Source: an uncultured Caldithrix sp. (GTDB lineage Bacteria > Electryoneota > AABM5-125-24 > Hatepunaeales > Hatepunaeaceae). From it: DNA of 64,000 bases. The stretch covers positions 4,310-68,309 of the forward strand of contig CAYHEC010000017.1 of assembly GCA_964355675.1 (NCBI GenBank), read 5' to 3'. Both the position numbers and the translations under genes were made by a program. Under the pieces are notes generated by a model that saw only the letters and a program-made list of their open reading frames with translations, made no database searches and was not told where the DNA came from. Shown here piece after piece: positions 2,495-40,127 of this stretch; position 1 is the first letter of the stretch; each line of letters opens with the position of its first letter.

Positions 2495-2765
2495 CTAAGT
2501 CTCACTTGGACGGTCGGATCGTCAGGTGTTCCATGTTTGGCATATAACTTTCGGAGCAAGGGATAATTTATCTAACAGCGCTTGATAATAGGTTATCAAC
2601 TAAGTAAAATAGTCACTGCGGAGCAAAGATGCAAATATTCATTCATTATTGTTGGAATTAGCAGATGTCATAATTCCTCCCAAAAGTAATTTAAGTATTC
2701 ATCTTACCTTGACAGTTGAACGCCGAAGGATTATATTTACTGTTTCAATTTCGTTTGGAGTTTTT

Positions 2766-3188: not shown

Positions 3189-3228
3189 TGACTCAAGGCG
3201 CTTTAAGTCAAGGAAGTGGGAGACAGGT

Positions 3229-3621
3229 TTGAAAGGTGAAAGTTTCTACGCGACCGGACGTCGGAAGACATCTGTTGCGCGAGTCTGGCTGCGACCTGGG
3301 AGTGGTCTGATTCTTGTCAATAAAGTTGACATGACCACATATTTCCACCGCGACAGTCTGACAATGATAATCGAACAGCCGCTTGCAGTTGCAGGTGGCG
3401 CGACCGTCTTTGACGTCGAAGTTTACGTTCATGGCGGTGGGAAAGCGGCTCAGGCCGGGGCGATGCGTTTGGGAATGTCTCGAGCGCTCATCAATTTCAA
3501 TCCCGAACTGAAGTCGGTGTTAAGGCAAGGCGGGTTTTTAACCCGAGATCCTCGTGAAAAAGAACGGAAGAAGTATGGACAACCCGGCGCCCGCAAGCGT
3601 TTCCAATACTCCAAGCGATAG
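3229..3621 (+). CDS. rpsI: 30S ribosomal protein S9
   Basis: YATGRRKTSVARVWL...GARKRFQYSKR, typical S9 ends. Confidence 0.9.
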   Translation: MKGESFYATGRRKTSVARVWLRPGSGLILVNKVDMTTYFHRDSLTMIIEQPLAVAGGATVFDVEVYVHGGGKAAQAGAMRLGMSRALINFNPELKSVLRQGGFLTRDPREKERKKYGQPGARKRFQYSKR

Positions 3622-8930: not shown

Positions 8931-9309
8931 GGTTAGGCTTTATTAAGTCTTGTTATGACCTATAGATTCGCATCAAAGTAAGCTCGGCAAGAAATTGCGA
9001 CATTGGTTGGAAGATGGTTGATGAGCACACACCATTCTTCGCTTGAACTAAGATAAGCAGGGCGAACCTGAATGTCAAGTGATTTATATCAATAATTTGA
9101 AAATTAATGCATGTATTGCAGATGGAGTGCAAATTCGGCATTATTCCTTGATAATCACTTCAATTCGAAATGGATTAGCTCTACAGTAAAGCCGTAATAA
9201 ACAGAAACCGTCAACCACACAGGGCTGACGGCTTCTGTTTATTAAATCTGAAAATTCACATCGTCAGATCCAAACATTGAACCTACTTGATTGAGGGTAG
9301 CAGTAACGA

Positions 9310-20515: not shown

Positions 20516-20649
20516 GAATGTAATTTATAAACTTGAAGAGTGGGAAGCAAATCCAATACGCAAATTGTTCAAGGTATGATGAGGAGATTGTCCTTGCCAT
20601 TGTCAATTCACTTTCAGCGGAACAAAAGTAATTACAAAAACAGAGAAGC

Positions 20650-20681
20650 TGTCAACCCTCTGTGGTTGACAGCTTCTCTGC
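20650..20681. terminator. GTCAACC-family terminator hairpin downstream of gcvPB
   Basis: agctgtcaaccctctgtggttgacagct. Confidence 0.6.
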
Positions 20682-20733: not shown

Positions 20734-22119
20734 TTAGGATTTATAGCAGATGTCGAGCGTCCGTGCCGCGGCCGCTTCATTGAAACGCGAAACTGGCGTT
20801 GTGATCGGAGCTTCGTGGAGCATTTCAGGATTCTCACGAGATTCACGATCAATCTGTAGCATGACGTCACAAAACGAGTCGAGTGTCTCAATCGTTTCTG
20901 TCTCGGTTGGTTCGATCATCAGTGCTTCATGTATAATATGGGGAAAGTTGATCGTAGGAGCATGAAATCCAAAGTCGAGAAGCCTTTTGGCGATATCGAC
21001 AGCTTTAATGCCACGTTCGACCTGATTGTCAGCCGAAAATACGACTTCGTGCGTACAGAATTGGTCGAATGGAAGTCGATACGCGCCCTTGAGCCGAGCC
21101 AGCAGGTAGTTGGCGTTGAGTATCGCCGTTTCTGTCATGTTCTTAAGACCATCTGATCCAAGAGATTTCATGTATGCCAAAGCCCGAATGAACATCCCAT
21201 AATTGCCGTACCAGCCATGCATCCTTCCTACCGAGTTGGGTCGATTGTAATCCCAGTCTAATGATCCGTCTGGCAATTCTTTGATACGGGGCACGGGCAG
21301 GAACTGTTCGAGATCACTGCGAACGGCGACAGGGCCAGAACCGGGACCGCCACCGCCGTGAGGCGTGGAAAATGTTTTGTGAAGGTTGATATGAAGGATG
21401 TCGAATCCCATTTCGCCAGGCTTGGCAAGACCGACAAGGCTGTTAAGGTTTGCGCCATCCATATAGAGCAGAGCCCCAGCGTCATGGACTGCTTTGGCCA
21501 CAAGGTCGATCTCATCTTCGAAGACGCCTGCGGTATTGGGATTGGTAACCATTAGGGCGGCGACGTCAGGTCCCAGCGCTTCTTTCAAGGTTTCGACATT
21601 AATTCTGCCACGGCTGTTCGAGGGAATCGAAACGACTTCATAACCTGCCATAGCAATCGATGCCGGGTTTGTTCCGTGCGCTGAGTCCGGGATGATAACT
21701 TTAGTACGCAGGTCATTGCGTGACTTGTGATAGTTTCGGACAATAAAAATACCGGTCAACTCACCATGCGATCCAGCCGCTGGTTGGAGCGTAACGGCTC
21801 CGAGCCCCGAAATTTCCATCAGCCAATATTCCAGCTCCTTCATGAGCCTCAAGGCTCCCTGAACCGTTGATACGGGTTGGGATGGATGAAGTCCGGCAAG
21901 TCCGGGGAGCGAAGCGAGGTTTTCGTTGACTTTCGGATTGTACTTCATCGTGCACGAGCCGAGAGGATAAAAACCTTTATCGACGTGGTGATTTAGTACC
22001 GATAGGTTTATGAAATGCCGAATGACCTCCGGTTCGGCAACCTGAGGAAGCGGTAGATCATTGCGAAGAAGATCGGGCGAAGGTCCGGGGATGTCGTCCG
22101 GGACATCTGAGACAGGCAT
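20734..22119 (-). CDS. gcvPB: Glycine dehydrogenase (decarboxylating) subunit 2
   Basis: FYPLGSCTMKYNP and PLP-region motifs; the ORF-track N-terminal extension to 22305 reads through a family A repeat and is rejected; start taken at MPVSDVPDD. Confidence 0.8.
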   Translation of the reverse strand: MPVSDVPDDIPGPSPDLLRNDLPLPQVAEPEVIRHFINLSVLNHHVDKGFYPLGSCTMKYNPKVNENLASLPGLAGLHPSQPVSTVQGALRLMKELEYWLMEISGLGAVTLQPAAGSHGELTGIFIVRNYHKSRNDLRTKVIIPDSAHGTNPASIAMAGYEVVSIPSNSRGRINVETLKEALGPDVAALMVTNPNTAGVFEDEIDLVAKAVHDAGALLYMDGANLNSLVGLAKPGEMGFDILHINLHKTFSTPHGGGGPGSGPVAVRSDLEQFLPVPRIKELPDGSLDWDYNRPNSVGRMHGWYGNYGMFIRALAYMKSLGSDGLKNMTETAILNANYLLARLKGAYRLPFDQFCTHEVVFSADNQVERGIKAVDIAKRLLDFGFHAPTINFPHIIHEALMIEPTETETIETLDSFCDVMLQIDRESRENPEMLHEAPITTPVSRFNEAAAARTLDICYKS

Positions 22120-22209
22120 ATAGCCGCAACGAATCGAGGGGCGACTTAGTTCAAAAATCAAAGGCGGTAGCGCCAAGAGAGACTCCAAAGAATATGTTAA
22201 TTGCTGGTG

Positions 22210-22240
22210 CTTGGAGGGCGGGATTAATCCCGCCCTCCAG
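22210..22240. repeat. Palindromic element family A
   Basis: cttggagggcgggattaatcccgccctccag. Confidence 0.8.
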
Positions 22241-22301
22241 AACGATATAATAGATTGGGTGATTATGGGATTGAACACTAAATAGTGCCCGATGAAAACT
22301 C

Positions 22302-22367
22302 TCAAAGAGCCCAGGCAGACGCCCTCGTCTGCCTATTTACGGTACTTAATCTAACGGCGGACAAGGG
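22302..22367. repeat. Double-hairpin element family B
   Basis: caggcagacgccctcgtctgcct ... ggcggacaagggcgtccgc. Confidence 0.7.
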
Positions 22368-22403
22368 CGTCCGCATGTACTTGGAAGGACTCTTCAGCAG
22401 ACC

Positions 22404-23354
22404 TTACTTCTCTCCGACCATCATGATCGAAAGTGCGAACGAATGGAGTATGTTTTCCGGGTTCTCACTCCGACTGGTAAGAATGATTGGAAATGGAGCT
22501 CCCACGACCACCGAGGCGGATTGTGCGCCGCAAAGAGTAATCAGCGATTTGAACAGCAGGTTGCCCACTTGAATCGAATCCATCACCAATACATCTGCTA
22601 CACCGGCGACAGCGCTATTCATTTTCTTCTTTTTGACGGCCGCCGGTGAAAGGCTCAGATCAAGTGATAACGGACCATCGACCGAGACTCCTTTGGGGAA
22701 CTGCCCTCGTTCGCTCATCTTGGCGATAACGGCTTCTTCCAGTGATACCGGCATACCGGGCGTTACAGTCTCGACTGCGGCAAGAAGAGATATTTTGGGT
22801 TCAGTCACACCAAGGAATTTCACAAATTCGGTAGCGTTCTGGATAAGTTTCAATCGTCCCGGCAGGTCGAGATCAACAGAAAGAGCGCAGTCGGTCAGAA
22901 GTACCAGTCGGTCAATTCCCTTAAGTTGTGTTACGACGATATTTGTCCAAAGTTCGCCAGAATCTCGCAGGCTGAGGTCACGCTCAAAAAGTGTGGCAAA
23001 AAAATCTCTTGCCAGCAATCTTCCACGCATCAGAACATCTGCCTCGTGATTCATTACCATCTTAGCCGCCAGACGCGTCGCGTCACGAGGGTCGCGTTCT
23101 TCGATAATGTCCCATCCGACAACAGATTCACCAGCTATTTCCAACTCATATCGCATGTGTCGAGAACGACCGATGAGTATTGGCGAAACCAGTCCCATCG
23201 CCTTGGCAAGAGCCAACCCTTTTATTGAAAGGACATCCTCCCCGACGGCAAGTGCAACTTTGTATGGTCCACACCGATTGGCGAGTCTATGGGCATTTTC
23301 ACGAATATCGTCGAATGATCTCTGAGGTTTATCAACTTTGTATTTGAAACGCAT
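22404..23354 (-). CDS. Phosphate acetyl/butyryl-transferase family protein (paralog 1)
   Basis: DGPLSLDLSLSPAAVKKKK...VAGVADVLVMDSIQVGNLLFK, typical PTA_PTB C-terminal motifs. Confidence 0.7.
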   Translation of the reverse strand: MRFKYKVDKPQRSFDDIRENAHRLANRCGPYKVALAVGEDVLSIKGLALAKAMGLVSPILIGRSRHMRYELEIAGESVVGWDIIEERDPRDATRLAAKMVMNHEADVLMRGRLLARDFFATLFERDLSLRDSGELWTNIVVTQLKGIDRLVLLTDCALSVDLDLPGRLKLIQNATEFVKFLGVTEPKISLLAAVETVTPGMPVSLEEAVIAKMSERGQFPKGVSVDGPLSLDLSLSPAAVKKKKMNSAVAGVADVLVMDSIQVGNLLFKSLITLCGAQSASVVVGAPFPIILTSRSENPENILHSFALSIMMVGEK

Positions 23355-23357
23355 GAC

Positions 23358-24308
23358 TTACCGCTCCTTCAGGAAATGCGCAAGAACGACAGCCAGTGCG
23401 ATTGAAGCGAGCTTGTTGAAAGCGTTATCGGCACGCGAAACGAGGCTGATTGGCGCTCCGGCTCCGACGATAACTCCCGCAAATGATGCACCACCGAAAA
23501 GAACCAACGATTTTGCCATCACGTTGGCTTCTTCGATGGATCCGGCAACGACTATGTCAGCCTGCCCTGCCACTTCGCTCTTCAACTTCTGGTACTCGAC
23601 TGCTTCAGGCCGAATGGCAGTATCGAAACCCATCGGGCCGTCGATGTGACAGTGTTTGATCTGACCTCGCTGAGCCATTTTTGAAAGAGCCGCCGCCTCG
23701 AACGTGTCCTTGAACGCTTCGACGATATAATCGATGGTGCTGAGGACTGCTACGCGGGGTACTTCTACGCCAAGCGCCCTAAGGACGAGCACGCTGTTGC
23801 GGATCATCTCGATCTTTTGCTCGAAATTGGGTTTTATAACCATTCCGCCATCGGTTACCCCTAACAATTTTGGATATCGTTCCGGTGAGAGTATTGCAGT
23901 ATGCGAGAGAAGACCTCGCCGACGAAGTCCGTATTGCTGTTTAAGGACGCACTTCAATAATTTGCCGGTAGGAAGAATTCCTTTCATTATAATATGTGCT
24001 TCTCCTGCTCCGACAGCTTGAGCTGTCAGATCGGCAGATTCGTCGTCGCTTTCGGTACCAACGACTCGAAAGTCAGCAGGGTTTCCGCCATGAGCTTCGA
24101 TGAGCGAGTTTATCTTGTTGGCGTCTCCGAAAAGAACACCCATGGCAATCCCTTCGGCTTGAGATCTGACGACTGCTTCTACGGCGGCATCGTCATGCGC
24201 CGCCGCAACGGCAACTTTGTGAGGCTCTCCTTCGCTCGAAATTTCCCGCGCCCTTCTGATGATATCCTCCATACTGGTGAGGAGCGGAATTTTTGGTCTT
24301 TGGGTCAT
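23358..24308 (-). CDS. Phosphate acetyl/butyryl-transferase family protein (paralog 2)
   Basis: IDGPMGFDTAIRPEAV...VAGQADIVVAGSIEEANVMAK; start probably at internal MTQRPK rather than the ORF-track start at 24362. Confidence 0.7.
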   Translation of the reverse strand: MTQRPKIPLLTSMEDIIRRAREISSEGEPHKVAVAAAHDDAAVEAVVRSQAEGIAMGVLFGDANKINSLIEAHGGNPADFRVVGTESDDESADLTAQAVGAGEAHIIMKGILPTGKLLKCVLKQQYGLRRRGLLSHTAILSPERYPKLLGVTDGGMVIKPNFEQKIEMIRNSVLVLRALGVEVPRVAVLSTIDYIVEAFKDTFEAAALSKMAQRGQIKHCHIDGPMGFDTAIRPEAVEYQKLKSEVAGQADIVVAGSIEEANVMAKSLVLFGGASFAGVIVGAGAPISLVSRADNAFNKLASIALAVVLAHFLKER

Positions 24309-24470
24309 ATTTGGTTGAATAATTTGATGAAAGCATATCCGCACATGTGCGAAATTACACAAATATAACGAGAATTAGTGAACATTGACAATCCTCGAGT
24401 GACAAGAGCGCGGCAGTCGGTAAAGATTCTCGTTTTGAGCCGAGACGTAGAACAAAGAAAAGAGAGTTGT

Positions 24471-24545
24471 GTAGTAGTGCCGATTTAAATCGGCGCTACC
24501 GGGAAAGAAATCAGATAGTAGGGTGGATTTAAATCCGCCCTACTA
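24471..24545. repeat. Two related ATTTAAAT-core palindromes followed by a T-run (family A variants)
   Basis: gtagtagtgccgatttaaatcggcgctac and tagtagggtggatttaaatccgccctacta, then aaattttttt. Confidence 0.6.
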
Positions 24546-24712
24546 TCAACAAATTTTTTTCACTATACCACAACTCCGCAGTGAACTCATGCGTTTGTTC
24601 CTAACAGATCGTCAGACGCTTGTAATTGATGATTGCAGGGATTATTTTCTAAAATGATTCAATACGGACTCCTAACATTCATTAAGGCAGACTTGACAGG
24701 GCTAATAATTTT

Positions 24713-27100
24713 ATGAACACGAAAAGGGCTACTGCGGGGATTTTTCTTCTTAGCGCATCTCTGCTGACTTTCGAATTGACTCTGATTAGAGTTTATTCAG
24801 CTACACTATTTTACCACTTTGCCTTCATGGCGATCTCGGTTGCAATGCTTGGCCTTTCAGCCGCGGCGCTGACCGTACATCGGCTTCCGCACAAGTTCCG
24901 TGCCGAAGACCTCCCGCGTTGGGGTTCGTTCTGGAGCGCCTGCTACGCAGTCTCTTTGATCGTGATACTCGAGATCACTTTCAGGATACCTGTCAATGCT
25001 TACCTGCCACCTGATGCGATTGCTGACAAGCTGGCGATCATCTACATACTGAGTGCGATACCGTTCTACTTTGCGGGATTGGTTTTCAGTGGATTATTTG
25101 CCGCCTTCACCAGTTATATTGGGAAACTTTATGCTTGGGATCTTATTGGCGCCGGTCTGGGTGCGGTGTTGATCATTCCTTTACTCAACTGGTCCGGGGG
25201 GGAGTCTGGCCCTTTTATCATTTCGGCGGCTGGTTTCGGTGCGGCGGCGATTTTTGGCTTGAGGAAACGCCAAAATCTCTTTATTGGACTTACCGTCGCG
25301 GCACTGATCTTAGCCTTAACCAATCATTCCTTCAACTGGCTGATGGTTAAATATAGCAAGGGGGCGCGGCTTGACCAGTTAGATATCAGGTACAACCGTT
25401 GGAACTCGATTTCTCGTATAATGGCGATTCCTTTCAGACCGGGTACTGACGCCGCCTACACCTGGTGTCCTTCGCCCAATTACCCGCTTCCGATCATGCC
25501 TCATTTAAGTTTATTGATCGATGATGGCGCCGCGACGCCGGTTTTGCCATTCGATGGCAGGAATCTCGAGCCGATCAATTACCTGAAGAACGACTTGACG
25601 TCGCTGTCACATCGATTGCATGGCAACGGCACTACTATGGTAATTGGCTGTGGAGGCGGGCGGGATGTTCTTACCGGACTTCTCTTTAATGCAGAAAGAG
25701 TCGATGCGGTCGATATAAATCCGTTGATGTTCGATGCAATGAATGGAAAACTTGCCGATTTCAATGGACATCTCTACACTCATCCCAAAGTGAGAGGCAT
25801 CGTGTCGGAGGGGCGTGCATTTGCGCGAAGAAATCCCGGCAAGTATGATTTACTGCAAGTTGCGATGATCGATACCTGGGCGGCAACGACAGCGGGTGCA
25901 TACAGCCTTTCAGAAAACAGTCTTTATACAGTTGAGGCTTTCGAGAATTACATCCGGGCATTGAAGCCCGGAGGAATATTCAGTTTTACCAGATTCTATT
26001 TTGAGCCTCCACAACAGGCATTGAGGCTCATCTCTCTTTATCTTGAAGCCGCCAAACGGATGGGGATTTCGGAACCGGACAAGTGTATTCTGGTTGCCTA
26101 TTATGAAAGCCTCGCCACAATTATCTTTAAAGCCGAGCCTTTTACCGCGCAGGAAATAGCAAAATTTAAGGGCGATGTTGCTGATCTCGGCTTCTACATC
26201 GTTTACACTCCAACCGATAGAGTAAACTCGTATTTTCGATCATTGATCGAATCGACAAACCGAGACGCATTTTACGCCCAGTATCCGTTTGACCTCCGAC
26301 CAAATACCGATGAGCGTCCATTCTTTTTCAATATGTTGAAAATGAAGGACTTCTTGCGTGTCTTTGAGATTCAGGAAGGGCAGAAATTTAATTTCTATGC
26401 GACTTATACCTTACTTGTGTTGCTTGGACTTTCTATCGTTGCGGTCGTTGTCGTACTGATTCTGCCGCAAATGTTCTGGGGAGAGAAGTTACTTCGCTTC
26501 CCAGGCCGCAAGGCTTTACTGCTATACTTTGTTGGATTGGGATTAGCGTATATTATGATTGAGACCGCGCTTTTGCAGAGATTTGTACTGCTCTTAGAGA
26601 ACCCGACCGTTTCTGCCAGTGCGGTGGTTGCCGGAATGTTGATCTCGAGTGGATTAGGGAGCTGGTTTTATGGGAGTCTTGCCGAAGAAGCGAAGCCGAC
26701 CTGGTTGCGGAGAGCGTTTGTCGTAATTGGGATCGGGCTGATGTTCCATATAATATTGGGTTATCAAATAATTCACTTGATGTTTGGACTACCTTTGCCG
26801 GTAAAAATCATCGCAACCGCTTTGCTTCTTTTGCCGCTTGGTTTCGCAATGGGAATGCCCCTTCCTGCCGGTTTGACTGCCGCCGGACTCAGGAGCGAGG
26901 GAACCGTTGCATGGTGTTGGGCCATCAACGGTGCGGCAAGCGTTGTCGCGTCGCCTTTGGCAGTGACTCTGGCGATGGCGAAGGGATTTAATTCGGTATT
27001 GGTTGTCTCATTATTGATCTATGCGAGTTCGTATGGATTTTTATTCATCTGGAAGCGCGGTGAATCATCAGGACTGGAAGCTATGGGAAAGGATTGTTGA
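24713..27100 (+). CDS. Polytopic membrane protein fused to a spermidine/spermine synthase-like methyltransferase-fold domain
   Basis: About 7 N-terminal TM helices, central VIGCGGGRD...DLLQVAMID aminopropyltransferase-like core, about 6 C-terminal TM helices; 795 aa. Confidence 0.65.
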   Translation: MNTKRATAGIFLLSASLLTFELTLIRVYSATLFYHFAFMAISVAMLGLSAAALTVHRLPHKFRAEDLPRWGSFWSACYAVSLIVILEITFRIPVNAYLPPDAIADKLAIIYILSAIPFYFAGLVFSGLFAAFTSYIGKLYAWDLIGAGLGAVLIIPLLNWSGGESGPFIISAAGFGAAAIFGLRKRQNLFIGLTVAALILALTNHSFNWLMVKYSKGARLDQLDIRYNRWNSISRIMAIPFRPGTDAAYTWCPSPNYPLPIMPHLSLLIDDGAATPVLPFDGRNLEPINYLKNDLTSLSHRLHGNGTTMVIGCGGGRDVLTGLLFNAERVDAVDINPLMFDAMNGKLADFNGHLYTHPKVRGIVSEGRAFARRNPGKYDLLQVAMIDTWAATTAGAYSLSENSLYTVEAFENYIRALKPGGIFSFTRFYFEPPQQALRLISLYLEAAKRMGISEPDKCILVAYYESLATIIFKAEPFTAQEIAKFKGDVADLGFYIVYTPTDRVNSYFRSLIESTNRDAFYAQYPFDLRPNTDERPFFFNMLKMKDFLRVFEIQEGQKFNFYATYTLLVLLGLSIVAVVVVLILPQMFWGEKLLRFPGRKALLLYFVGLGLAYIMIETALLQRFVLLLENPTVSASAVVAGMLISSGLGSWFYGSLAEEAKPTWLRRAFVVIGIGLMFHIILGYQIIHLMFGLPLPVKIIATALLLLPLGFAMGMPLPAGLTAAGLRSEGTVAWCWAINGAASVVASPLAVTLAMAKGFNSVLVVSLLIYASSYGFLFIWKRGESSGLEAMGKDC

Positions 27101-27249
27101 TCAGATGCAAAAAGCGTGTAGCACGCACAGCTTTGCTGGGCGGGTTCAGTCATTAATAATCAATACTATCCGCACGGATGAGCTCAGCGGACTCACGCTA
27201 CTATTCCAATCACAGCGGTATTTGAACGCCCGCTCGGAAAGGTAATATA

Positions 27250-28719
27250 ATGCTTCGAACATTGCGCAGTAAGATATTGACATCTTTAGCGCTTGCCTCT
27301 GTTGTCTCAATCGTCATTTCGACTCTCAGCATAAACTATCTCTTCATTCGTCAGGAAAAAAAATATATCGAACAACGTTTGAAGTTGGTCGCCGAGATGG
27401 CACATGCGACCTTACGCCACCAAATGATCCATTATCATCAGGGAGAACTTGGTGATATTATTAATCGAATTGCCGATCAACCTCCCATTGTCAGCATCAA
27501 AATCATGAATGCTGACGGAATAATCAAAATATCCAGCCTACCGGCAGAGAATAATGAGCCGTTTACAGAAAGCAAATTCCTAATACCGGACAGCATTTTA
27601 TCTCATTATAATCGAATTTTAAACGGACAGCGGGTTATTTCTTCGATTTCACCGATCTACCGCACACCCGACTGTGCATCATGCCATGCCGGACAAGAAA
27701 AGATCTTGGGCTATTTCGACGTCGATGTTACCGCAGAGGAAATCGATAGTGGCATAAGGAACGCTCAGACCTGGATGGTGGTATCTCTGATCTTCATAGT
27801 CATTATATTCTTGGGGACGGCATTCGGTGTTCACTTTCGATTTGTAAAGACCCGAACTCATCAGCTTGCGGTTGGGATTTCTCAGCTTGCCGAAGGGAAT
27901 TTCAACTATCGCATTGAATCAAACCAGCACGATGAGCTTGACGCTCTTGCTGTTCAAATTAACCGCCTCGGCGACCACCTGAACCAAATGAAACAAGAGC
28001 TTCAAAAATCGCACCGCTCAGAGCTTGAGAGAGCTGAGCGTATGGCTTCAGTGGGAGAACTTGCGGCATCGATAGCCCATGAAATCCGTAATCCTGTAGC
28101 AGGTATCTCGAGCGCCATGCAAGTTCTTTCTTCCGAACTTCCGGAAGGTGATGAACGGGCGGTGATTTTCGATGAAATTGTTAATCAAACTCAACGAGTC
28201 AATCGTGCCGTGAACGATCTGCTCAGTTACGCAAGACCATCGACGCCAGAATTGGCGGTTGGATCGATAAATGATCCGTTGACAAGAGCCCTGACATTGA
28301 TGGAGGCTCAGCAACATGCGGTAAAAGTTGTATTTATCAAGCAAATAGAACCGAATTTGCCTCCGGTGTTGTTGGATGTTGAGCAAATTAAACAGGTGTT
28401 TGTCAATCTTGTTATGAACGCTTTGCAGGCGATGAACCACGGCGGAACACTCACGCTTAAGACCTTTTCTGAAAATGAGGAAGTCATTGTTGAAATATCT
28501 GATACAGGACCGGGTGTAGCAGAAAATGTTCTTCAAGACATATTTAAGCCTTTCTTTACCACCAAGCATCAGGGGACAGGCCTGGGGCTTTCCATCTGTC
28601 GTTCGATTATCGAGAGTCACTGCGGAAGAATTGAAGTCGATTCTGTTCGCGGTTCGGGAGCAACTTTTCGCATTAGATTACCCATTCACCGTTTAGAGGA
28701 GGCAAACGAACCAATTTGA
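27250..28719 (+). CDS. Sensor histidine kinase with periplasmic CxxCH (c-type heme) motif and HAMP domain
   Basis: TM1, periplasmic domain containing DCASCHAG, TM2, HAMP, H-box SIAHEIRNP, HATPase GTGLGLSICR. Confidence 0.8.
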   Translation: MLRTLRSKILTSLALASVVSIVISTLSINYLFIRQEKKYIEQRLKLVAEMAHATLRHQMIHYHQGELGDIINRIADQPPIVSIKIMNADGIIKISSLPAENNEPFTESKFLIPDSILSHYNRILNGQRVISSISPIYRTPDCASCHAGQEKILGYFDVDVTAEEIDSGIRNAQTWMVVSLIFIVIIFLGTAFGVHFRFVKTRTHQLAVGISQLAEGNFNYRIESNQHDELDALAVQINRLGDHLNQMKQELQKSHRSELERAERMASVGELAASIAHEIRNPVAGISSAMQVLSSELPEGDERAVIFDEIVNQTQRVNRAVNDLLSYARPSTPELAVGSINDPLTRALTLMEAQQHAVKVVFIKQIEPNLPPVLLDVEQIKQVFVNLVMNALQAMNHGGTLTLKTFSENEEVIVEISDTGPGVAENVLQDIFKPFFTTKHQGTGLGLSICRSIIESHCGRIEVDSVRGSGATFRIRLPIHRLEEANEPI

Positions 28720-30107
28720 CAGGCGCAAAAATACTCATCGTAGATGATGAAAAGCTGATACGTTGGGCTTTGGAAAAAGGCCTGAAACAGATCGGTTTTC
28801 AAGTTGAAACTGCCGCAACCGGTGAGGAGGGACTTCAAAAATATGAGTCCTTCCTGCCCGACGCAGTTATTCTCGACAATAAGCTTCCCGGCATACAGGG
28901 TTTGGAGATTCTCAACGAGTTGAAGAGTCGTGACGCCCGGCTGATTATACTCTTTATGACCGCCTTCGGTACTATCGAAACTGCCGTCGAAGCAATGAAG
29001 CGCGGAGCTTATGATTATATCAATAAACCGTTTGTCTTCGAAGAAATTAGGCAACTGCTTGAAAAAGCCCTCTATGTTCAGCGATTGGATACTGAGGTCC
29101 AGACACTCAAGGCAGTGGTTCAGAAGCAGTTCGACACTGAGAATGTTATCTCACTTTCGCCAGCAATGCGCAATATACTGCAAATGGTGGATAAAATCGC
29201 GCGAAGTGAGGCTCCTACAGTATTGCTGACCGGCGAATCGGGAACAGGCAAGGACTTAATGGCGAGAGTCATCCATGAACGAGGTCCCCGCCGTCAACGT
29301 CCATTCGTTACTATCAATTGTTCAGCGCTTCCCGAGTCTCTTCTTGAAAGTGAATTGTTTGGCTACGAGAAAGGCGCCTTTACCGACGCAAAGCAGATGA
29401 AACGCGGTCAATTCGAACTCGCGTCTGGCGGGACGATCTACCTCGACGAAATTGGGGAAATCGCACTCGGACTTCAGGTCAAGCTCCTGCAGGTAATAGA
29501 AAACCGCATGTTCCGCCGGGTCGGAGGCGTTAAGGACATCCTTGTCGATTCTCTGATCATTGCCGCGACCAATATCAATCTGGCAAGCGCTGTCGAAGCC
29601 GGGATGTTCCGCCGCGATCTGTACTATAGACTTAACTTGATTCCAATTGAATTGCCGCCGTTAAAGTCGCGGCGGGAAGACATTGTTCCCATCGCTCTCT
29701 ATTTTGTGCGGAAATTCAACGATGAGTTTCATCGACATTTCAAGGGTATTACTGATGAAGTGAAGAAGATTCTCACCGAATATGATTGGCCTGGAAACAT
29801 TCGTGAATTACGCAACGTGGTCGAGCGAATTGTGATTCTCGAGAATGACGAAATGATCGAAGCCAACCATCTGCCCATCGAGTTGCGCCAATATGCGGAG
29901 GTTTCCTTGGATCAATCCCATTTCCTTTCAACCCAAGAATTGGGCATTGAAATTCCAGTAGAAGGACTCTCAATGGAAGCTGTCGAAAGGGAATTAGTAG
30001 TGAAAGCGCTGAACAAAACTGCCCAAAATCAAACCAAGGCAGCCAAGATGCTCGACATCACGCGAGACTCGCTTCGCTATAAGATGAAAAAGTTCGGGTT
30101 GCTGTAG
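28716..30107 (+). CDS. Sigma-54-dependent response regulator (NtrC family)
   Basis: REC (ILIVDDEK), AAA+ GESGTGKDL, ESELFGYEKGAFTDA, C-terminal Fis-type HTH. Confidence 0.85.
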   Translation: MTGAKILIVDDEKLIRWALEKGLKQIGFQVETAATGEEGLQKYESFLPDAVILDNKLPGIQGLEILNELKSRDARLIILFMTAFGTIETAVEAMKRGAYDYINKPFVFEEIRQLLEKALYVQRLDTEVQTLKAVVQKQFDTENVISLSPAMRNILQMVDKIARSEAPTVLLTGESGTGKDLMARVIHERGPRRQRPFVTINCSALPESLLESELFGYEKGAFTDAKQMKRGQFELASGGTIYLDEIGEIALGLQVKLLQVIENRMFRRVGGVKDILVDSLIIAATNINLASAVEAGMFRRDLYYRLNLIPIELPPLKSRREDIVPIALYFVRKFNDEFHRHFKGITDEVKKILTEYDWPGNIRELRNVVERIVILENDEMIEANHLPIELRQYAEVSLDQSHFLSTQELGIEIPVEGLSMEAVERELVVKALNKTAQNQTKAAKMLDITRDSLRYKMKKFGLL

Positions 30108-30115
30108 AACACCGT

Positions 30116-30355
30116 CTTGGAGGGCGGACTTCTCGCGTAGGATAAGCGTCCCGCTTGTCAAGAGCGGACTAAAAGAGTTCGTTGATTTATTCGTTCGAGT
30201 AGAGATTTGATCCTCTTGGAGGGGGGGCTTCAGCCCCCCCTAAAGGACGATCAAGCACAAACAAGGGCGGGCTGAAGCCCCCCCTCCAAGAGAATCTTGT
30301 CCGAATTGGCGTCTCAAGCGAATAAATCAACGAACTCTAAAAGTCCGCCCTCCAT
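30116..30355. repeat. Composite nested-palindrome element (~240 bp, MITE-like) built on family A ends
   Basis: Outer arms cttggagggcggact / agtccgccctccatg; inner perfect IR aaaagagttcgttgatttattcg / cgaataaatcaacgaactctaaaag; two central G8C/C8 hairpins. Confidence 0.75.
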
Positions 30356-30356
30356 G

Positions 30357-32102
30357 AATGAAATAACAAATTTAAATCACACCGTACCGGAGTTTCCAAT
30401 GGAAATTAAAGGCAAAAACATTCTCATCCTCGGAGGCTGGGGACTGGTCGGAACCGCGATTTGCCGTAAACTAATAGAATATGGACCTAAAAGTATAACA
30501 ATTGCCTCACTCACCAAAGCTCAAGCCGAAGAAGCCGTTGCCGAGTTAAAACCTATCGCCGCGAAGGTAAAACTGGCGGCGGAGTGGGGGAACATCTTCG
30601 TCCGAAACGAATTCAAAGATCTCTCACGCGATGAAATTCTTGGTAGCCGCGAACGGCGACTGATCCTTGCCGCAGATGTGCTTGAGAGAACGACTGCCAC
30701 CTCGTTCGGGCACTTTTTCCTCTACGACATGATCACCCGTTGCCAGCCCCACATCGTCATCGACTGCGTCAATACAGCAACCGGCGTAGCTTATCAAGAC
30801 ATCTACTCAGCAGGACTGCGCGTCCTTGAATTAGTAAAAGGAGTACAAGCCAACGAACCTGCCGAAGATTTCATTGTCGAAGTTGAGAAACTGCTCGATA
30901 CTCTTTATATACCGCAGATTGTGCGCCATGTGCAGGTGATCTATGCCGCAATGAAGGAAGCAAAAACGCACACATACGTCAAGGTTGGCACGTCTGGCAC
31001 TGGCGGGATGGGACTAAACATTCCTTACACTCACTCCGAAGACAAGCCGTCCCGAGTCTTACTATCTAAAAACTGTATTGCCGGAGCGCATTCGCTGTTG
31101 CTTTTCCTGATGGGAAGGACTCCGGATGCACCTTATGTCAAAGAGGTAAAACCTGCAACTGCCATAGCCTGGAAACGCATCGAGCGGGGAGACATCCTCA
31201 AAGGCGGCAAGCCGATCCCACTTTATGGCTGTCCGGCAGATAAATGTGTCAAGCTCGAGGGAACACTTGACACCGCCGCGAAACCTGCCGACTGCGAACC
31301 CCTCGGCAAGAACTTGCAAGGCGTCTTCATCGACACCGGTGAAAATGGGACATTTTCGCCCGGCGAGTTCACCGCCATTACTACTATTGGCCAGATGGAA
31401 TACATCACTCCTGAAGAGATCGCCAAGACAATCGCCTGGGAGATTGAAGGCGGTAACTCCGGGCACGACATCATCGGAGCCTTGGACGGCGCGGTGCTGA
31501 GTTCGACCTACCGTGCCGGTGTCATGCGGACTCTGGCCATCGACAAGATGAAAGCGATGCTAAAGGAAGAGTCAACCGACCCGGTGGCGTTTGAACTGCT
31601 TGGCCCGCCCCGCCTTTCCAAGCTACTGTACGAGGCGAACCTGTTGAAGCAGACATTCGGCTCAATCGACGCGGTGCTGAAAACAACTCCAAAGAAGCTC
31701 TCCGACGCCTGTATAAAATTGATCCAAAAAGATGACGGATTGCGGAGCAGAATAGTCTCCATCGGCATACCGATCCTGCTTGCCGACGGTAAATCTCTGT
31801 TGAAGGGACCCTTAGTCAAAGTCCCCGCCGATCCCCGTCGCACGAAGTTCACGATCACTCCCGATTCGATTGAGAACTGGTCACACAACGGCTGGGTTGA
31901 CTTAAGGGTTGCCAATATGGTGAAGTGGCAGGAAAGACTGATGTTGTTGAAGAATCAAGCCCTTGCCGTCACCACCGACGACACATCCTCGCATACGATC
32001 CGCGATGCGGCGTTTTGGAGCTTCGACAAACCTCTCGATGAAGGCGAGCTTGTCGGCTGGATCTTCATCGAAGAGGAAAAGGGTTTAAGGATGAAGAGTT
32101 AG
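30357..32102 (+). CDS. Hypothetical Rossmann-fold (NAD(P)-binding) protein, about 580 aa
   Basis: KNILILGGWGLVGTAI GxGxxG motif near the N-terminus; start set at ATG 30357 just outside the repeat (the ORF track starts inside the repeat at 30297). Confidence 0.5.
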   Translation, partial: NEITNLNHTVPEFPMEIKGKNILILGGWGLVGTAICRKLIEYGPKSITIASLTKAQAEEAVAELKPIAAKVKLAAEWGNIFVRNEFKDLSRDEILGSRERRLILAADVLERTTATSFGHFFLYDMITRCQPHIVIDCVNTATGVAYQDIYSAGLRVLELVKGVQANEPAEDFIVEVEKLLDTLYIPQIVRHVQVIYAAMKEAKTHTYVKVGTSGTGGMGLNIPYTHSEDKPSRVLLSKNCIAGAHSLLLFLMGRTPDAPYVKEVKPATAIAWKRIERGDILKGGKPIPLYGCPADKCVKLEGTLDTAAKPADCEPLGKNLQGVFIDTGENGTFSPGEFTAITTIGQMEYITPEEIAKTIAWEIEGGNSGHDIIGALDGAVLSSTYRAGVMRTLAIDKMKAMLKEESTDPVAFELLGPPRLSKLLYEANLLKQTFGSIDAVLKTTPKKLSDACIKLIQKDDGLRSRIVSIGIPILLADGKSLLKGPLVKVPADPRRTKFTITPDSIENWSHNGWVDLRVANMVKWQERLMLLKNQALAVTTDDTSSHTIRDAAFWSFDKPLDEGELVGWIFIEEEKGLRMKS

Positions 32103-32138
32103 GGAAGTGGGAAAGTGCGAAAGTAGGAAAGTGCGAAA

Positions 32139-32165
32139 GTGGGGCGGATTGCAATCCGCCCTACC
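32139..32165. repeat. Family A variant palindrome (ggggcggattgcaatccgcccta)
   Basis: Inverted repeat around a TTGCAA core. Confidence 0.55.
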
Positions 32166-32191: not shown

Positions 32192-32221
32192 CAGCCGTCA
32201 ATCCTCTGGGGTTGACGGTAT
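32192..32221 (+). terminator. GTCAACC-family terminator hairpin
   Basis: agccgtcaatcctctggggttgacggtatc. Confidence 0.6.
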
Positions 32222-32289: not shown

Positions 32290-32604
32290 ATGAACCTATT
32301 TCCGACTCCGCATCTTCTTGGTAACGCGTTACTTGATGAAGAACGAGAGAAGCATATTCTGATTCGTCATCCTGAATTATCCCGTGATCATCTTGAATTG
32401 ATTGGTGATGTACTTCTTAGACCAGACAACGTGAGAAGTAGCTCCCGCGATCATACAGCCTTGCTATTCTCAAGGTATTTCCCGGATTTTATGGGTGGCA
32501 AGCACATTGTTGTTGTCGTTGTTTCCAATTCCCTGACAGCCGCACATCGAATAATAACAGCCTATGTCACGAGGCGAATAATTGAAGGACACAAAAATGT
32601 CTAA
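32290..32604 (+). CDS. Small hypothetical protein, upstream partner of a DUF2283-like gene (possible toxin-like component)
   Basis: 104 aa; 8-bp overlap with the next small gene; no confident family. Confidence 0.4.
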   Translation: MNLFPTPHLLGNALLDEEREKHILIRHPELSRDHLELIGDVLLRPDNVRSSSRDHTALLFSRYFPDFMGGKHIVVVVVSNSLTAAHRIITAYVTRRIIEGHKNV

Positions 32605-32830
32605 CAGACTTACGATTACATACGACCGTGAAGGGGACATTCTTTACATAAATCGGATGGAACCTTATCCTGAGCAGGATTCAGAGGAAGTTGGCGACGA
32701 AGTCGTCGCACGATTGAATCCAATCACCCATGAAATTGAGAACCTTGAGTTGCTTTTCTTTTCGACGCGTCTCCTTAGAAAGGACGTCTTGGAATTGCCT
32801 ATTGAGGCAGAAATGCGGATGGCAGGATAA
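32597..32830 (+). CDS. DUF2283-like small protein (possible antitoxin-like partner)
   Basis: MSNRLTITYDREGDILYI...ITHEIENLELLF pattern typical of the DUF2283 family. Confidence 0.5.
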   Translation: MSNRLTITYDREGDILYINRMEPYPEQDSEEVGDEVVARLNPITHEIENLELLFFSTRLLRKDVLELPIEAEMRMAG

Positions 32831-32835
32831 GAAAG

Positions 32836-32863
32836 AGCCGTCAACCCTCCGGGGTTGACAGCG
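32836..32863 (+). terminator. GTCAACC-family terminator hairpin
   Basis: agccgtcaaccctccggggttgacagcgg. Confidence 0.6.
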
Positions 32864-32898
32864 GATCACTGGCTATTACTGATCGGTATCGGAGAAAG

Positions 32899-33783
32899 AT
32901 GAAACTTACATTGAAAAGCTTGGCTCAAAAAGTTCTTGAGGAAGCGAAAACCCCACTATCAGCAAATGAGATCTGGGAGGTTGCCAAAGAAAAAGGTTAT
33001 GATGGGGAATTACAGTCGATTGGGAAAACCCCATGGATGTCGATCTCAGCGCAAATCTATCGAGAACTCGTTTTGAAGCCTGAAAGTTCAATATTTGAAT
33101 TATTTGGAGAAAACCCTCGTCGCATCAAGCTTCGATCTTCCACAATTGTAACATCCAATGTACTTACTGAAACCTTCTCTACACCTGATTCAGTCAGTGA
33201 ACGAGACTCTTATCCCGAAGTCGCGAGGTTCATTCGGCGTCAATTCGGCGCATACTCAAAGATTATTGATGATCGAAAATCAAAGAAGGGTAAAAAAGGT
33301 GAGAATGAGTGGATGCATCCCGATATAGTTGCGTGTTACTTTCCATTCGAAGATTGGAATACTGAAGTGTATGATTTAGCACGACAACTTACAGGAACTC
33401 CTCAGAGGCTTTATGCATTCGAAGTTAAAAAGGAGATTCGATACGGGGATTTACGACAATCCTATTTTCAAGCTGTCTCAAACTCTTCATGGGCTAATGA
33501 AGCATACTTAGTAGCAGCCAATTTTCCAGATAAAGATGAGGATTTTATCGAAGAACTAAGAAGATTATCTGCTGCGTTTGGTATCGGAATTATCGAGCTT
33601 GATAAGAAAGACCCAGAAGCATCCTTGATTATTGTTGGTGCTCGCTACAACGAACAGCTTGACTGGATTACGATCAACAAAATTGCTGGATTGAATCCTG
33701 ATTTTAAGGACTTTATTACAAAAGTTGGGAAGGATTCTTCAACCAAAAACGTTAGCAAAGAGTGGTACCAGAAGGTTGAGTAG
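32899..33783 (+). CDS. HARE-HTH domain fused to a PD-(D/E)xK restriction-endonuclease-like domain
   Basis: N-terminus KVLEEAKTPLSANEIWEVAKEKGY...GKTPWMSISAQIYREL (HARE-HTH-like); C-terminus HPDIVACYF ... YAFEVKKE (D...ExK). Confidence 0.55.
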   Translation: MKLTLKSLAQKVLEEAKTPLSANEIWEVAKEKGYDGELQSIGKTPWMSISAQIYRELVLKPESSIFELFGENPRRIKLRSSTIVTSNVLTETFSTPDSVSERDSYPEVARFIRRQFGAYSKIIDDRKSKKGKKGENEWMHPDIVACYFPFEDWNTEVYDLARQLTGTPQRLYAFEVKKEIRYGDLRQSYFQAVSNSSWANEAYLVAANFPDKDEDFIEELRRLSAAFGIGIIELDKKDPEASLIIVGARYNEQLDWITINKIAGLNPDFKDFITKVGKDSSTKNVSKEWYQKVE

Positions 33784-33940
33784 TTGACGTTGCTTATTCC
33801 CACTTGACTTTTGCCTTCCATTTGCTTAGATTAGTGCTCACGAGGGTGGGCTTGCCTCAAGGGCAAACCTCCAACTTTGCGGGGACGGAATTAGGGGTGC
33901 GCAACTCTGAGTTTACCGTCCCCGCTTCTTTTGTAGGACA

Positions 33941-34018
33941 GCACCCCGGTAGCTCAATAGGATAGAGTCCCACCCTCGTAAGTTGGAGGTTGCGGGTTCG
34001 AATCCAACGTGGGGTGCG
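33941..34018 (+). tRNA. tRNA-like gene (candidate tRNA-Thr, anticodon CGT), irregular
   Basis: 7-bp acceptor GCACCCC/GGGGTGC, D-arm GCTCAATAGGATAGAGT, T-loop GGTTCGAATCC, anticodon loop CTCGTAA; spacing irregular (4 nt between acceptor and D-stem, weak T-stem). Confidence 0.5.
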
Positions 34019-34069
34019 ACCTTTTGATTGTGCGTTATTGAAAATATCTTTCCAAAATCCAAAATCTAT

Positions 34070-34766
34070 GTTACCACTAATCGCCATCGACGGCCCCGCC
34101 GGGGCCGGAAAATCATCCACTGCTCGTCAGGTCGCCTGGCGGCTCGGACTGCCTTATCTCGACACCGGAGGTCTCTACCGCGCCGCCGCTTGGGCGGTGC
34201 TGAAACAGCGAGTCGATCTCAAGGACCCGACCGCTATCTTCCACACTGTCGATAAAGCTGTCATCACTTTTGCCCAAGCCCAACGTGGCGTAAAATTTTG
34301 GGTCGATGGCGTTGACGTCACTATAGCCATCCGTCAGCCCGATGTGAATGTCGCTGTTTCGCCGGTCTGCGAAGTAGGAAATGTTCGTAAGAAACTCGTC
34401 GCCATGCAGAGAGGCTGGGCGGCGAGAGGTTTCGGTGTCCTTGAAGGTCGCGACATCGGTACGGTCGTCTGTCCCGAAGCAGGACTTAAGGTCTTTATGA
34501 CGGCACGACCCGAAATTCGCTCCATGCGTCGTGGAAAAGAGCTCGGCATCGATCAAGACCCCGAGTCCCTGACTCGTCTTACGACCGAGATTGCGGAACG
34601 CGACCGCCGGGATACAGAACGCACAGATTCCCCACTGAGACCTGGTGACGAGGCGGTTATTCTCGACACATCAGACATGACTTTTAACGAACAGGTGGAT
34701 ACTATTGTCAGGCTGGCGGCGGAGCGATTCGGTACGCGGCTCTACGCGGCTTCGACAAGACCTTGA
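34070..34766 (+). CDS. cmk: Cytidylate kinase
   Basis: IAIDGPAGAGKSSTARQVA...LDTGGLYR; start set at ATG 34070 (the ORF-track start at 33990 overlaps the tRNA). Confidence 0.85.
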
Positions 34767-34785: not shown

Positions 34786-34940
34786 TTGGTAGCGCGTAGG
34801 GGCCGAAGCCACCGAAGGTGGCTTCGTGCCTGCCTCGGCCAGAAAAGCACGATCCCGACAAGTCGGGATCGGCTTCTACGCGGTTGTTAGCTTCTCGACA
34901 TGAACAAAGCTGTCAACCCTCCGGGATTGACAGCTTTGTC
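34786..34940. repeat. Structured intergenic element: nested palindromes plus a GTCAACC-family terminator
   Basis: gcgtaggggccgaagccaccgaaggtggcttcg..., cgatcccgacaagtcgggatcg, then agctgtcaaccctccgggattgacagctt. Confidence 0.6.
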
Positions 34941-38517: not shown

Positions 38518-39585
38518 ATGATTGAATATATTCGACTTAAAAACCTGACAGCATTCAAAAACTTTGAATGGAAGGCCACCGGCGCTTTGAATGGTAAAGA
38601 CGCAGGTGCGTTGAATGTTATTGTTGGGATAAATGATACAGGCAAAACCCACCTTCTAAAATTCCTCTATGCTTTTGCAAAAAGTTATGAGGGACATTCG
38701 AAGGGTGGGATTGGCTCAGGCTCATGGGCGAAACTTCTTGCAGACAAGCTTCTAAAGGTATTTTTGCCTCACGCGGACGCATTGAATTCCTTGATAAGTA
38801 ATGGTGCACCTCGTTTGGATTCATATATCCGTTTCAATGATGAAAATTTGCATTTTTCCTTTGGCAAAGATACGACCTCGACTATTACTGATTGCGAGAG
38901 TTATATCAAACCTGATAAAGAGCTACGGGTTCTTTTCTTTCCTCCAAAAGAAGTGCTTACAACACATCAGGCACTCACGGCGCTATTGCAAGACTCCGAT
39001 TATCAATCATGGGGATTCGATGCAACCTATTACGACTTGATTGATGCACTTAGGAGACCAGGGGCGAAAGGTAATGTTAATAAGAGTCTTACAGATTCTA
39101 AAGTTAAGCTTGAAGAGTTATTGAACGGACACTTCGAGTACATAAATGACAATGAGTTCCTGTTCTATCGAACTGGAGCTAAAGAGCCATCAAGGATGTG
39201 GCAAACTGCAGAAGGATATAAGCGTATCGGTATTCTTACTCTCCTCGTGAATAGCCGTTGGATTCGTAAGGGTTCAATCCTATTTTTCGATGAACCGGAA
39301 GCCAACCTACATCCGATGGCAGCGAGGGTAATGGCACAAATTCTATTCAATTTTGCACAAGCGGGCGTTCAGATCTTCCTTTCAACGCATAGCTATTTCA
39401 TTCTCAAACAACTTGAGTTGTTGGCACGTAAAGAGGATTTCAGTATCCCCACATGTTCGCTTGTCAAAGGAGCTTCAGGTATTGAGGCAATTTTCGCTAA
39501 CCTCAAGAATGGAATGCCTGAGAATTCTATTGTAGATGAATCGGTTGCTATGTTCGAGGAAGATCTTCAACTTGAATTGGAGTAA
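38518..39585 (+). CDS. ABC/AAA_21-type ATPase (defence-system-like)
   Basis: Walker A GINDTGKT, Walker B ILFFDEPEANLHP, H-loop LSTHS; 355 aa; AT-rich relative to flanks. Confidence 0.7.
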   Translation: MIEYIRLKNLTAFKNFEWKATGALNGKDAGALNVIVGINDTGKTHLLKFLYAFAKSYEGHSKGGIGSGSWAKLLADKLLKVFLPHADALNSLISNGAPRLDSYIRFNDENLHFSFGKDTTSTITDCESYIKPDKELRVLFFPPKEVLTTHQALTALLQDSDYQSWGFDATYYDLIDALRRPGAKGNVNKSLTDSKVKLEELLNGHFEYINDNEFLFYRTGAKEPSRMWQTAEGYKRIGILTLLVNSRWIRKGSILFFDEPEANLHPMAARVMAQILFNFAQAGVQIFLSTHSYFILKQLELLARKEDFSIPTCSLVKGASGIEAIFANLKNGMPENSIVDESVAMFEEDLQLELE

Positions 39586-39590
39586 CAACT

Positions 39591-40127
39591 TTGAATCTTA
39601 AATGGCACGACGATGAGTCAGGTGTAGAATTAGGTCTCCCCGACAAGGATCATTTTCGATTTCAGGACTGTGAAGCCTATAATAAGGTGAAAGGAATGGG
39701 AATCAAGGAGATGGATTTCTGCTGGTGGAATCAAACGAAGGATTCTATCTATTTACTAGAAGCATTAGACACCAAGAAGGATTCATCTCAGGAAATATTA
39801 CTCAAAATTGTTGTAAAGGGTTTGGACAGCTTACTGTTATTGTTAGCTGTTTGGATGGATACAAGGTTCGGTGAAAGTTTGGGTTCGGAATTACCCAAAT
39901 CCTTTCCAACAGCAATTCCAACGAAATTCATATTTATTTTCATTTTACGGACTCGATCAGGCCATGCGGTAAGTTCGGATAAAAAAGGGCAATTTGCACC
40001 TTATCAAGATAAAGCAAGGTCCAGACTCCGTAGTCGATTAGGTCTCTTTTCTGGGAATCCAAGATTAGTAATTGATGATAAAGAATCAATTATAAGAATC
40101 GCTCTTGGTGATGCTGTGATTAGATGA
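39591..40127 (+). CDS. Hypothetical 178-aa protein, partner of the ATPase
   Basis: 5-nt gap after the ATPase gene; same AT-rich composition; no recognisable family. Confidence 0.45.
   Translation: MNLKWHDDESGVELGLPDKDHFRFQDCEAYNKVKGMGIKEMDFCWWNQTKDSIYLLEALDTKKDSSQEILLKIVVKGLDSLLLLLAVWMDTRFGESLGSELPKSFPTAIPTKFIFIFILRTRSGHAVSSDKKGQFAPYQDKARSRLRSRLGLFSGNPRLVIDDKESIIRIALGDAVIR

Follow-up and report, generated by a model that had tools for sequence, protein, structure and literature searches.

A variable slot upstream of a tRNA-Thr gene in an uncultured Caldithrix sp. carries a predicted PBECR2-DUF2283 toxin-antitoxin pair and an HrgA-family protein with a predicted PD-(D/E)xK nuclease domain

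HrgA typifies the Pfam family DUF511, for which an N-terminal winged helix and a C-terminal PD-(D/E)XK domain have been predicted (Laganeckas 2010); the winged helix is of the type found in the RNA polymerase delta subunit-like, or HARE-HTH, domains. In some Helicobacter pylori strains, hrgA takes the place of the restriction gene hpyIIIR (Laganeckas 2010), and DUF511/COG2958 has been assigned to the PD-(D/E)XK superfamily with its function given as unknown (Steczkiewicz 2012). As relayed in the papers that cite it, a prediction from the Aravind group holds that fusions of HARE-HTH with a restriction endonuclease (REase) domain discriminate modified DNA, and on the mark predicted for HARE-HTH these citing papers disagree, naming adenine modifications in one case and cytosine modifications in the other. 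Small nucleases of the BECR fold are likewise known from several settings: PBECR2 (Pfam PF18810, phage Barnase-EndoU-ColicinE5/D-RelE-like nuclease 2) has been reported for the most part as a domain within polyvalent and MuF proteins of phages (Iyer 2017), and DUF4258 proteins (Ntox49-like, colicin-like BECR) as type II toxin-antitoxin (TA) toxins, encoded in antitoxin-toxin order and with an unknown target (Gerdes 2025). Here, we describe three consecutive open reading frames (ORFs), ORF1, ORF2 and ORF3, that bring relatives of HrgA and PBECR2 together beside a threonine transfer RNA (tRNA) gene in a 64,000-nucleotide (nt) stretch of DNA, hereafter the window, from an uncultured Caldithrix sp. 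(assembly GCA_964355675.1, contig CAYHEC010000017.1, positions 4,310 to 68,309).

The three ORFs occupy a 1.6-kb slot that is variable and holds nuclease-type cargo both in the window genome and in a metagenome relative (locus L091). The reading we favour, with a probability of roughly 0.7, is that the slot, an accessory site of a Calditrichota chromosome that lies between the terminator of a conserved 601-amino-acid (aa) oxidoreductase-like gene and the promoter and leader of tRNA-Thr, harbours two horizontally mobile conflict modules that are independent of each other, namely a translationally coupled TA or immunity pair (ORF1 and ORF2) and a stand-alone HrgA nuclease (ORF3). An earlier, sequence-only reading of this DNA had located the same three ORFs, and their coordinates stand (Table 1). 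Started from its ATG, ORF2 shares 8 nt with the end of ORF1 and is preceded by an AAGGA ribosome-binding site; this start is also the choice of gene callers on identical metagenome contigs. A gap of 68 nt separates ORF2 from ORF3. In line with the earlier observation that the region is AT-richer than its flanks, the three-gene stretch has a GC content of 42.2%, the mean of the window being 48.4% (standard deviation 2.8%), and falls within the lowest 0.9% of windows of the same size.

Table 1. Positions of the features of the slot and of the dispersed hairpins, numbered from the first letter of the window (aa, amino acids; REP, repetitive extragenic palindromic).
Feature	Position	Strand	Remarks
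ORF1	32290..32604	+	104 aa
ORF2	32597..32830	+	77 aa from ATG; alternative TTG start at 32582 gives 82 aa
ORF3	32899..33783	+	294 aa
HARE-HTH (winged-helix) DNA-binding domain of ORF3	32908..33096	+	aa 4-66; Pfam PF05066, E=1.3e-11
Predicted PD-(D/E)xK domain of ORF3	33187..33780	+	aa 97-294; E101, D142, E175-x-K177, Q191
GC-rich palindrome GGGGCGGATTGCAATCCGCCC after the 601-aa gene	32139..32164	+	left border of the variable slot; terminator-like
Promoter-like box, leader and GC hairpin with T-run of the tRNA-Thr locus	33802..33940	+	conserved with L091 3250-3388
tRNA-Thr (anticodon CGT)	33943..34017	+	ARAGORN; Rfam RF00005, 34.2 bits, above the gathering score
REP-like hairpin, copy 1 (AGCCGTCAATCCTCTGGGGTTGACGGT)	32193..32219
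REP-like hairpin, copy 2	32836..32862		separates the ORF1-ORF2 pair from ORF3; terminator-like on the minus strand only
REP-like hairpin, further copy	9210-9231	-
REP-like hairpin, further copy	20649-20670
REP-like hairpin, further copy	34908-34934

Judged by full-length homology, ORF3 is a member of the known HrgA/DUF511/COG2958 family, whose architecture was already predicted computationally in 2010-2012. A database search with ORF3 found over 3,500 homologs; the best of them are about 45% identical over their full length and come from distant phyla (Chlorobium, Thermosipho, Synechococcus, Acidobacteriota, Chloroflexota and a Heimdallarchaeote); some homologs carry the name ‘COG2958 family protein’. 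Against Helicobacter heilmannii HrgA, BLASTP aligns ORF3 over 269 aa with 32% identity (E=2e-50), and all motif blocks are conserved. Plasmids yielded 30 records in a tblastn search, the matching genes being annotated as ‘HrgA protein’ or ‘HTH domain-containing protein’, and the same search with ORF3 found no match in 50,697 phage records.

The N-terminus of ORF3 had been read as a HARE-HTH module from the letters alone, and the Pfam match bears this out; moreover, the domain is matched in all 41 of the full-length homologs that were aligned with the C-terminal domain (C-domain). A Pfam scan of the C-terminal two-thirds of ORF3 gave no match, and a scan of 42 family members revealed no recurrent C-domain family, PF04373/DUF511 not being among the matches in the Pfam copy used. 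Alignments of 26 and 42 ORF3-family members contain about 50 invariant columns, among them E101, H140-P141-D142, F174-E175-x-K177, Q191 and an SNSSW block, with the HPDIV and FEVKKE motifs of ORF3 sitting on the invariant columns D142, E175 and K177. In an AlphaFold (AF2) model of the isolated C-domain (predicted local distance difference test score, pLDDT, 89.8; predicted template modelling score, pTM, 0.87), the elements are predicted to follow the order alpha(E101)-beta-beta(D142 at its N-terminus)-beta(E175, K177)-alpha(Q191)-beta-alpha-beta, and this modelled topology is that of a canonical PD-(D/E)xK core, whose motifs fall on the elements where they are expected.

Comparison of this C-domain model with the viral structures of BFVD by Foldseek gave nine matches with E<=1e-3 and probability 1.0, three of which are annotated as ‘MmcB-like DNA repair protein’. 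The MmcB-like matches (DUF1052, PF06319) are the best-scoring named ones (E=1e-4 to 8e-4, probability 1.0); MmcB is a PD-(D/E)XK endonuclease and an SOS-regulated repair factor, and DUF1052/PF06319 is included in the published PD-(D/E)XK catalogue. MmcB-like proteins lack a HARE-HTH domain and are 12-13% identical to ORF3, and in contrast to MmcB as an SOS-regulated repair factor, ORF3 is accessory cargo of patchy distribution. Against the PDB, the full-length and C-domain models of ORF3 gave sub-threshold matches only, in which proteins of the restriction-endonuclease fold (FokI, EcoT38I, Cap4, YaeQ, MUS81 and AF2093) recur and APOBEC appears as noise; a PDB sequence search with the three proteins and with the ORF3 and ORF1 family profiles returned nothing significant. 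Collectively, family-wide invariant motifs, the topology of the model, significant fold matches to MmcB-like proteins and the published assignments uphold the D...ExK nuclease signature, and with it the PD-(D/E)xK fold, that the sequence-only reading had proposed for this protein.

ORF3 resembles HrgA in length, in its full-length homology, in the combination of HARE-HTH with a PD-(D/E)xK domain bearing all three motifs, and in having no conserved methylase partner. It differs from the HrgA proteins of the Helicobacter/Campylobacter branch in belonging to a large environmental ‘COG2958’ branch, and from the HrgA genes linked to restriction-modification (R-M) systems in having a predicted TA pair and a tRNA as neighbours, outside any R-M locus. 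We sampled 11 other contexts of HrgA-family genes. The order hsdM-hsdS-HrgA-hsdR occurs on one Vibrio plasmid and one Proteus plasmid, and HsdR-SprT-HrgA on another Vibrio plasmid; a gene on a Clostridium megaplasmid lies close to two methyltransferases and one restriction endonuclease, and the Thermosipho gene is accompanied by a PLD-SNF2 helicase and by an Eco57I-type methylase. No conserved partner was seen among the 11 neighbourhoods, and none of them contains the PBECR2/DUF2283 pair. Such contexts would fit a mobile, methylase-independent nuclease that works either by itself or in aid of R-M systems. In joining a reader-type domain to a nuclease domain, ORF3 is also comparable to Type IV restriction enzymes such as DpnI and HhiV4I (winged helix and PD-(D/E)xK) and TagI (SRA and HNH), and in keeping with a Type IV-like architecture the window locus encodes no methylase and none is conserved in the family. 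However, no sequence relationship of ORF3 to DpnI, HhiV4I or TagI was detected, and HARE-HTH has an extra helix in its helix-turn-helix.

ORF1, for which the sequence-only reading had offered no family, is probably a solo PBECR2-type RNase of the BECR fold and, by its sequence, a predicted toxin. A word-indexed search with ORF1 found two homologs only; an exhaustive profile search recovered a family of 913 cluster representatives, nearly all of 100-112 aa. Among 47 aligned members of this family, 39 match Pfam PBECR2 (best E=1.3e-6), 10 match PBECR3 and three weakly match DUF4258. The name ‘PBECR2 nuclease fold domain-containing protein’ is given by NCBI to one member (P0324) and by UniRef to another, and precomputed PF18810 matches of family members agree with these names. 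R19, H22 and H27 are conserved in a predicted N-terminal helix, H22 and H27 being nearly invariant across the alignment, and T90 is invariant; all four residues are present in the window protein. The active site of PBECR and colicin-D-like BECR RNases consists of a histidine that lies on the N-terminal helix, plus a C-terminal threonine or serine (Iyer 2017), so that H22 together with the invariant T90 matches this description.

ORF1 thus resembles PBECR2 in that its family matches the PBECR2 profile, yet it is chromosomally encoded, stands alone with its 104 aa and has a dedicated DUF2283 partner downstream, whereas PBECR2 is chiefly a domain of phage proteins. With the DUF4258 toxins it shares its predicted nature as a small BECR-fold toxin and its two-gene module; in contrast to the order in DUF4258 modules, however, the toxin comes first here and DUF2283 follows. 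By the Pfam matches among the 47 members, the ORF1 family is nearer to PBECR2 than to DUF4258.

ORF2 contains ITYDREGDILYI, and the DUF2283-like pattern that the sequence-only reading had pointed out in it holds up, ORF2 matching Pfam DUF2283 with E=8e-7 and 29.5 bits (cutoff 23 bits). A mention of DUF2283 in connection with FseA/QseM (Ramsay 2015) was set aside as evidence, since the domain number given for FseA elsewhere appears to differ. In each of five other ORF1-family contexts, the next gene downstream encodes 77-79 aa and overlaps by 16 nt, and in three of the five this downstream gene has a recorded DUF2283 match. Because the overlapping pair is kept in all five relatives examined, we regard ORF1 and ORF2 as a TA (immunity) module, in which ORF2 is predicted from sequence to be the cognate antitoxin or immunity protein of ORF1. 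A 189-aa metagenome protein in ENA (P0383) joins a PBECR2-like N-terminal half to a DUF2283 C-terminal half (PF18810+PF10049), the latter being 55% identical to ORF2; its junction replaces the conserved TAY motif, and the fusion may be a frameshift or an assembly artefact. None of the five ORF1-family contexts has an HrgA-family gene, which argues that ORF1 and ORF2 form a self-contained, toxin-first BECR RNase/DUF2283 module. Since the pair and an HrgA-family gene are never found together in the 16 other contexts sampled, the pair and ORF3 are best regarded as two independent modules and not as a single unit.

Comparison with relatives delimits the slot on both sides. The closest genome locus (L005), with flanking proteins 87-92% identical, runs collinear with window positions 21785 to 32160, and beyond 32160 it diverges into an S1-domain gene, without the three ORFs, the tRNA-Thr or cmk at that place. 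In L091, a related Calditrichota contig, the counterpart of the 601-aa gene (82% identical) is followed by the slot, tRNA-Thr(CGT) and cmk, with the gene for elongation factor G (EF-G, 75% identical) further on. The slot of L091 measures 0.9 kb and contains a single, different gene (2446-3240, 264 aa) whose product ends in an HNH endonuclease domain (Pfam E=7e-5); the N-terminal region of this 264-aa protein is uncharacterised. The tRNA-like gene of the sequence-only reading is a real tRNA-Thr(CGT) by both ARAGORN and Rfam. About 140 nt upstream of it, including a promoter-like (sigma70-like) site TTGACT-17-TAGATT at 33804-33832, are conserved between the window and L091 despite different upstream genes and therefore belong to the tRNA locus, which sets the right border of the slot near 33800. 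The cargo thus stands on the 5' side of tRNA-Thr, beyond the conserved promoter and leader of the tRNA.

The leader of tRNA-Thr also carries two conserved blocks, ACGAGGGTGGG and CCTCCAACT, which in the two sequences available show complementarity, in permuted order, to both halves of the anticodon arm of that tRNA, and a GC hairpin with its T-run comes next, immediately 5' of the tRNA; an Rfam scan of the leader gave no match. At the left end, about five tandem copies of the 8-nt unit AAGTGNGA (32105-32144) directly follow the 601-aa gene's stop codon and precede the terminator-like palindrome, and a degenerate version of this repeat is visible in L005.

A palindromic REP-like element with the consensus AGCYGTCAAYCCTCYGGGRTTGACRG occurs in five copies in the window, against none expected by chance, all of them intergenic, and is absent from the relatives' loci. 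The two 27-nt copies that flank the ORF1-ORF2 pair were considered as attachment (att) sites, and this was rejected, the element being present at three other intergenic sites of the window as well.

We propose that ORF1 would act as a metal-independent endoRNase and that ORF2, which would be translated together with it, most likely blocks ORF1 by direct stoichiometric binding. Loss of the locus, or stress-induced decay of the antitoxin, would then free the RNase, and the pair may in this way serve as an addiction or abortive-infection-type module; both the toxicity and its neutralisation are inferred. As for ORF3, its HARE-HTH winged helix would recognise DNA, possibly in a modified or otherwise marked state, and the PD-(D/E)xK domain, through E101, D142, E175 and K177, would cleave it without a cognate methylase. 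ORF3 would most plausibly be a Type IV-like or accessory restriction nuclease, and any dependence of cleavage on modification is conjectural.

Several observations weigh against this explanation. None of the three proteins matches a defence model of PADLOC-DB 2.0 at E<=1, and none is recognised by NCBIfam or PHROGs. ORF1 taken alone matches Pfam PBECR2/PBECR3 weakly, with E about 0.03, which is below the Pfam threshold. The window ORF1 also lacks two residues that are nearly invariant in its family, C6 and a C-terminal W, and for this reason it could be attenuated; the short C-terminus is found in one 60%-identical relative as well. With regard to ORF3, about half of the sampled HrgA-family genes lie amid housekeeping genes or transposases and not in R-M loci. 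A number of H. pylori strains that carry hrgA have an inactive HpyIIIM, and no methylase neighbour is conserved (Laganeckas 2010), which makes a classical Type II role unlikely and a restriction role hypothetical. No biochemical characterisation of HrgA/DUF511/COG2958 and no experimental demonstration of mark reading by HARE-HTH were found in the literature searched. The sequence-only reading had presented ORF3 as a little-studied HARE-HTH/REase fusion, and this agrees with the absence of a functional test from that literature; an orphan oddity it is not, given its thousands of homologs in a named family.

Other explanations of the slot as a whole have to be weighed against that of two independent conflict modules. 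The three genes might constitute one integrated system, co-transcribed and co-inherited, in which the TA pair controls or backs up the nuclease; their adjacency on the same strand, their common low GC content, the short gap between ORF2 and ORF3 and the lack of a classical plus-strand terminator within it would suit such a system. We nevertheless consider it very improbable, as the two modules do not co-occur in any other context sampled, a REP-like hairpin stands between the ORF1-ORF2 pair and ORF3, and the ORF1 and HrgA families are each widespread independently. A classical genomic island, put into the tRNA-Thr gene by a site-specific integrase, is the integration context that the sequence-only reading had in mind. 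The slot does adjoin a tRNA, is low in GC and varies among relatives (L005 and L091), and to this extent that reading stands. However, neither the slot nor the adjacent genes encode an integrase or recombinase, the three ORFs being the only ones between the 601-aa gene and cmk; no convincing direct repeat matches the 3' end of the tRNA, the sole candidate being a 74%-identical 19-mer inside ORF2; the cargo sits 5' of the tRNA, behind its conserved leader; and the repeated hairpins are genome-wide REP-like elements. A tRNA-integrated island of the classical kind is therefore largely refuted, and we give it next to no weight.

For ORF3 on its own, two further roles come into question. It may have no part in restriction or defence and instead be an MmcB-like repair or processing nuclease or a helix-turn-helix DNA-binding regulator: among its significant fold matches the best are to MmcB-like repair proteins, many HrgA-family members lie amid housekeeping genes, PADLOC has no model for ORF3, and genes of the family carry the NCBI label ‘HTH domain-containing protein’ and Gene Ontology (GO) transcription labels. 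We regard this as unlikely. The family is patchy, plasmid-borne and repeatedly found inside Type I R-M operons, and ORF3 is absent from close relatives at the locus; its invariant catalytic residues speak against a purely regulatory role, and at such low identity the likeness of its fold to MmcB reflects a shared superfamily and not orthology. Alternatively, ORF3 could be a selfish, homing-type nuclease gene that replaces resident genes to no benefit of the host, as might be suggested by the mutually exclusive hrgA and hpyIIIR alleles that are exchanged by recombination in H. pylori (Laganeckas 2010), by HrgA-family copies next to transposases and by the different, HNH-type nuclease in the slot of L091. 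Yet ORF3 has no homing-endonuclease family signature and no intron or intein context, identity of about 45% across phyla together with some 50 invariant residues points to long-term selection on function, and family members embedded in hsd operons point to cooperation with R-M systems, so that we hold a homing role to be decidedly unlikely. None of these four readings is favoured by the evidence over that of an independent TA pair and a stand-alone HrgA nuclease.

Several observations concern the surroundings of the slot. The sole other stretch of the window that is equally AT-rich, at 38518-40127, holds a two-gene candidate HEC-02 defence system: a 355-aa AAA_15/AAA_21 ATPase matches PADLOC HEC-02A (E=4e-94), and its 178-aa partner matches HEC-02B (E=6.5e-28). 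The C-terminus of the 601-aa protein is recorded as Pfam Beta_methylindole_red_C; the gene is listed at 30297-32102, and this mechanical ORF start is probably too far upstream, its homologs starting at MEIKGK (residue 35). On the other side, the cmk ORF is listed at 33990-34766 from a TTG at 33990 and would so overlap the tRNA; gene callers take the ATG at 34068 (232 aa).

Both gene families have already been catalogued and computationally interpreted, and the locus appears as ordinary accessory cargo of the defence type that introduces no new principle. On a wider view, it is conceivable, although we hold it doubtful, that HrgA/COG2958 proteins are widespread, unrecognised stand-alone restriction nucleases of bacteria and archaea whose HARE-HTH discriminates a specific DNA modification and, separately, that solo PBECR2 with DUF2283 forms a toxin-first TA family absent from the BECR and TA surveys that we read. 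Either of the two, the HrgA/COG2958 family or the PBECR2-DUF2283 pair, is widespread and would be a tractable target for the wet laboratory. HrgA/COG2958 has thousands of members and recurs in Type I R-M operons, and it shares HARE-HTH with the human ASXL proteins; if the wider view is true, a member of this family would give the first biochemical read-out of HARE-HTH recognition, which would be relevant to the ASXL proteins as well.

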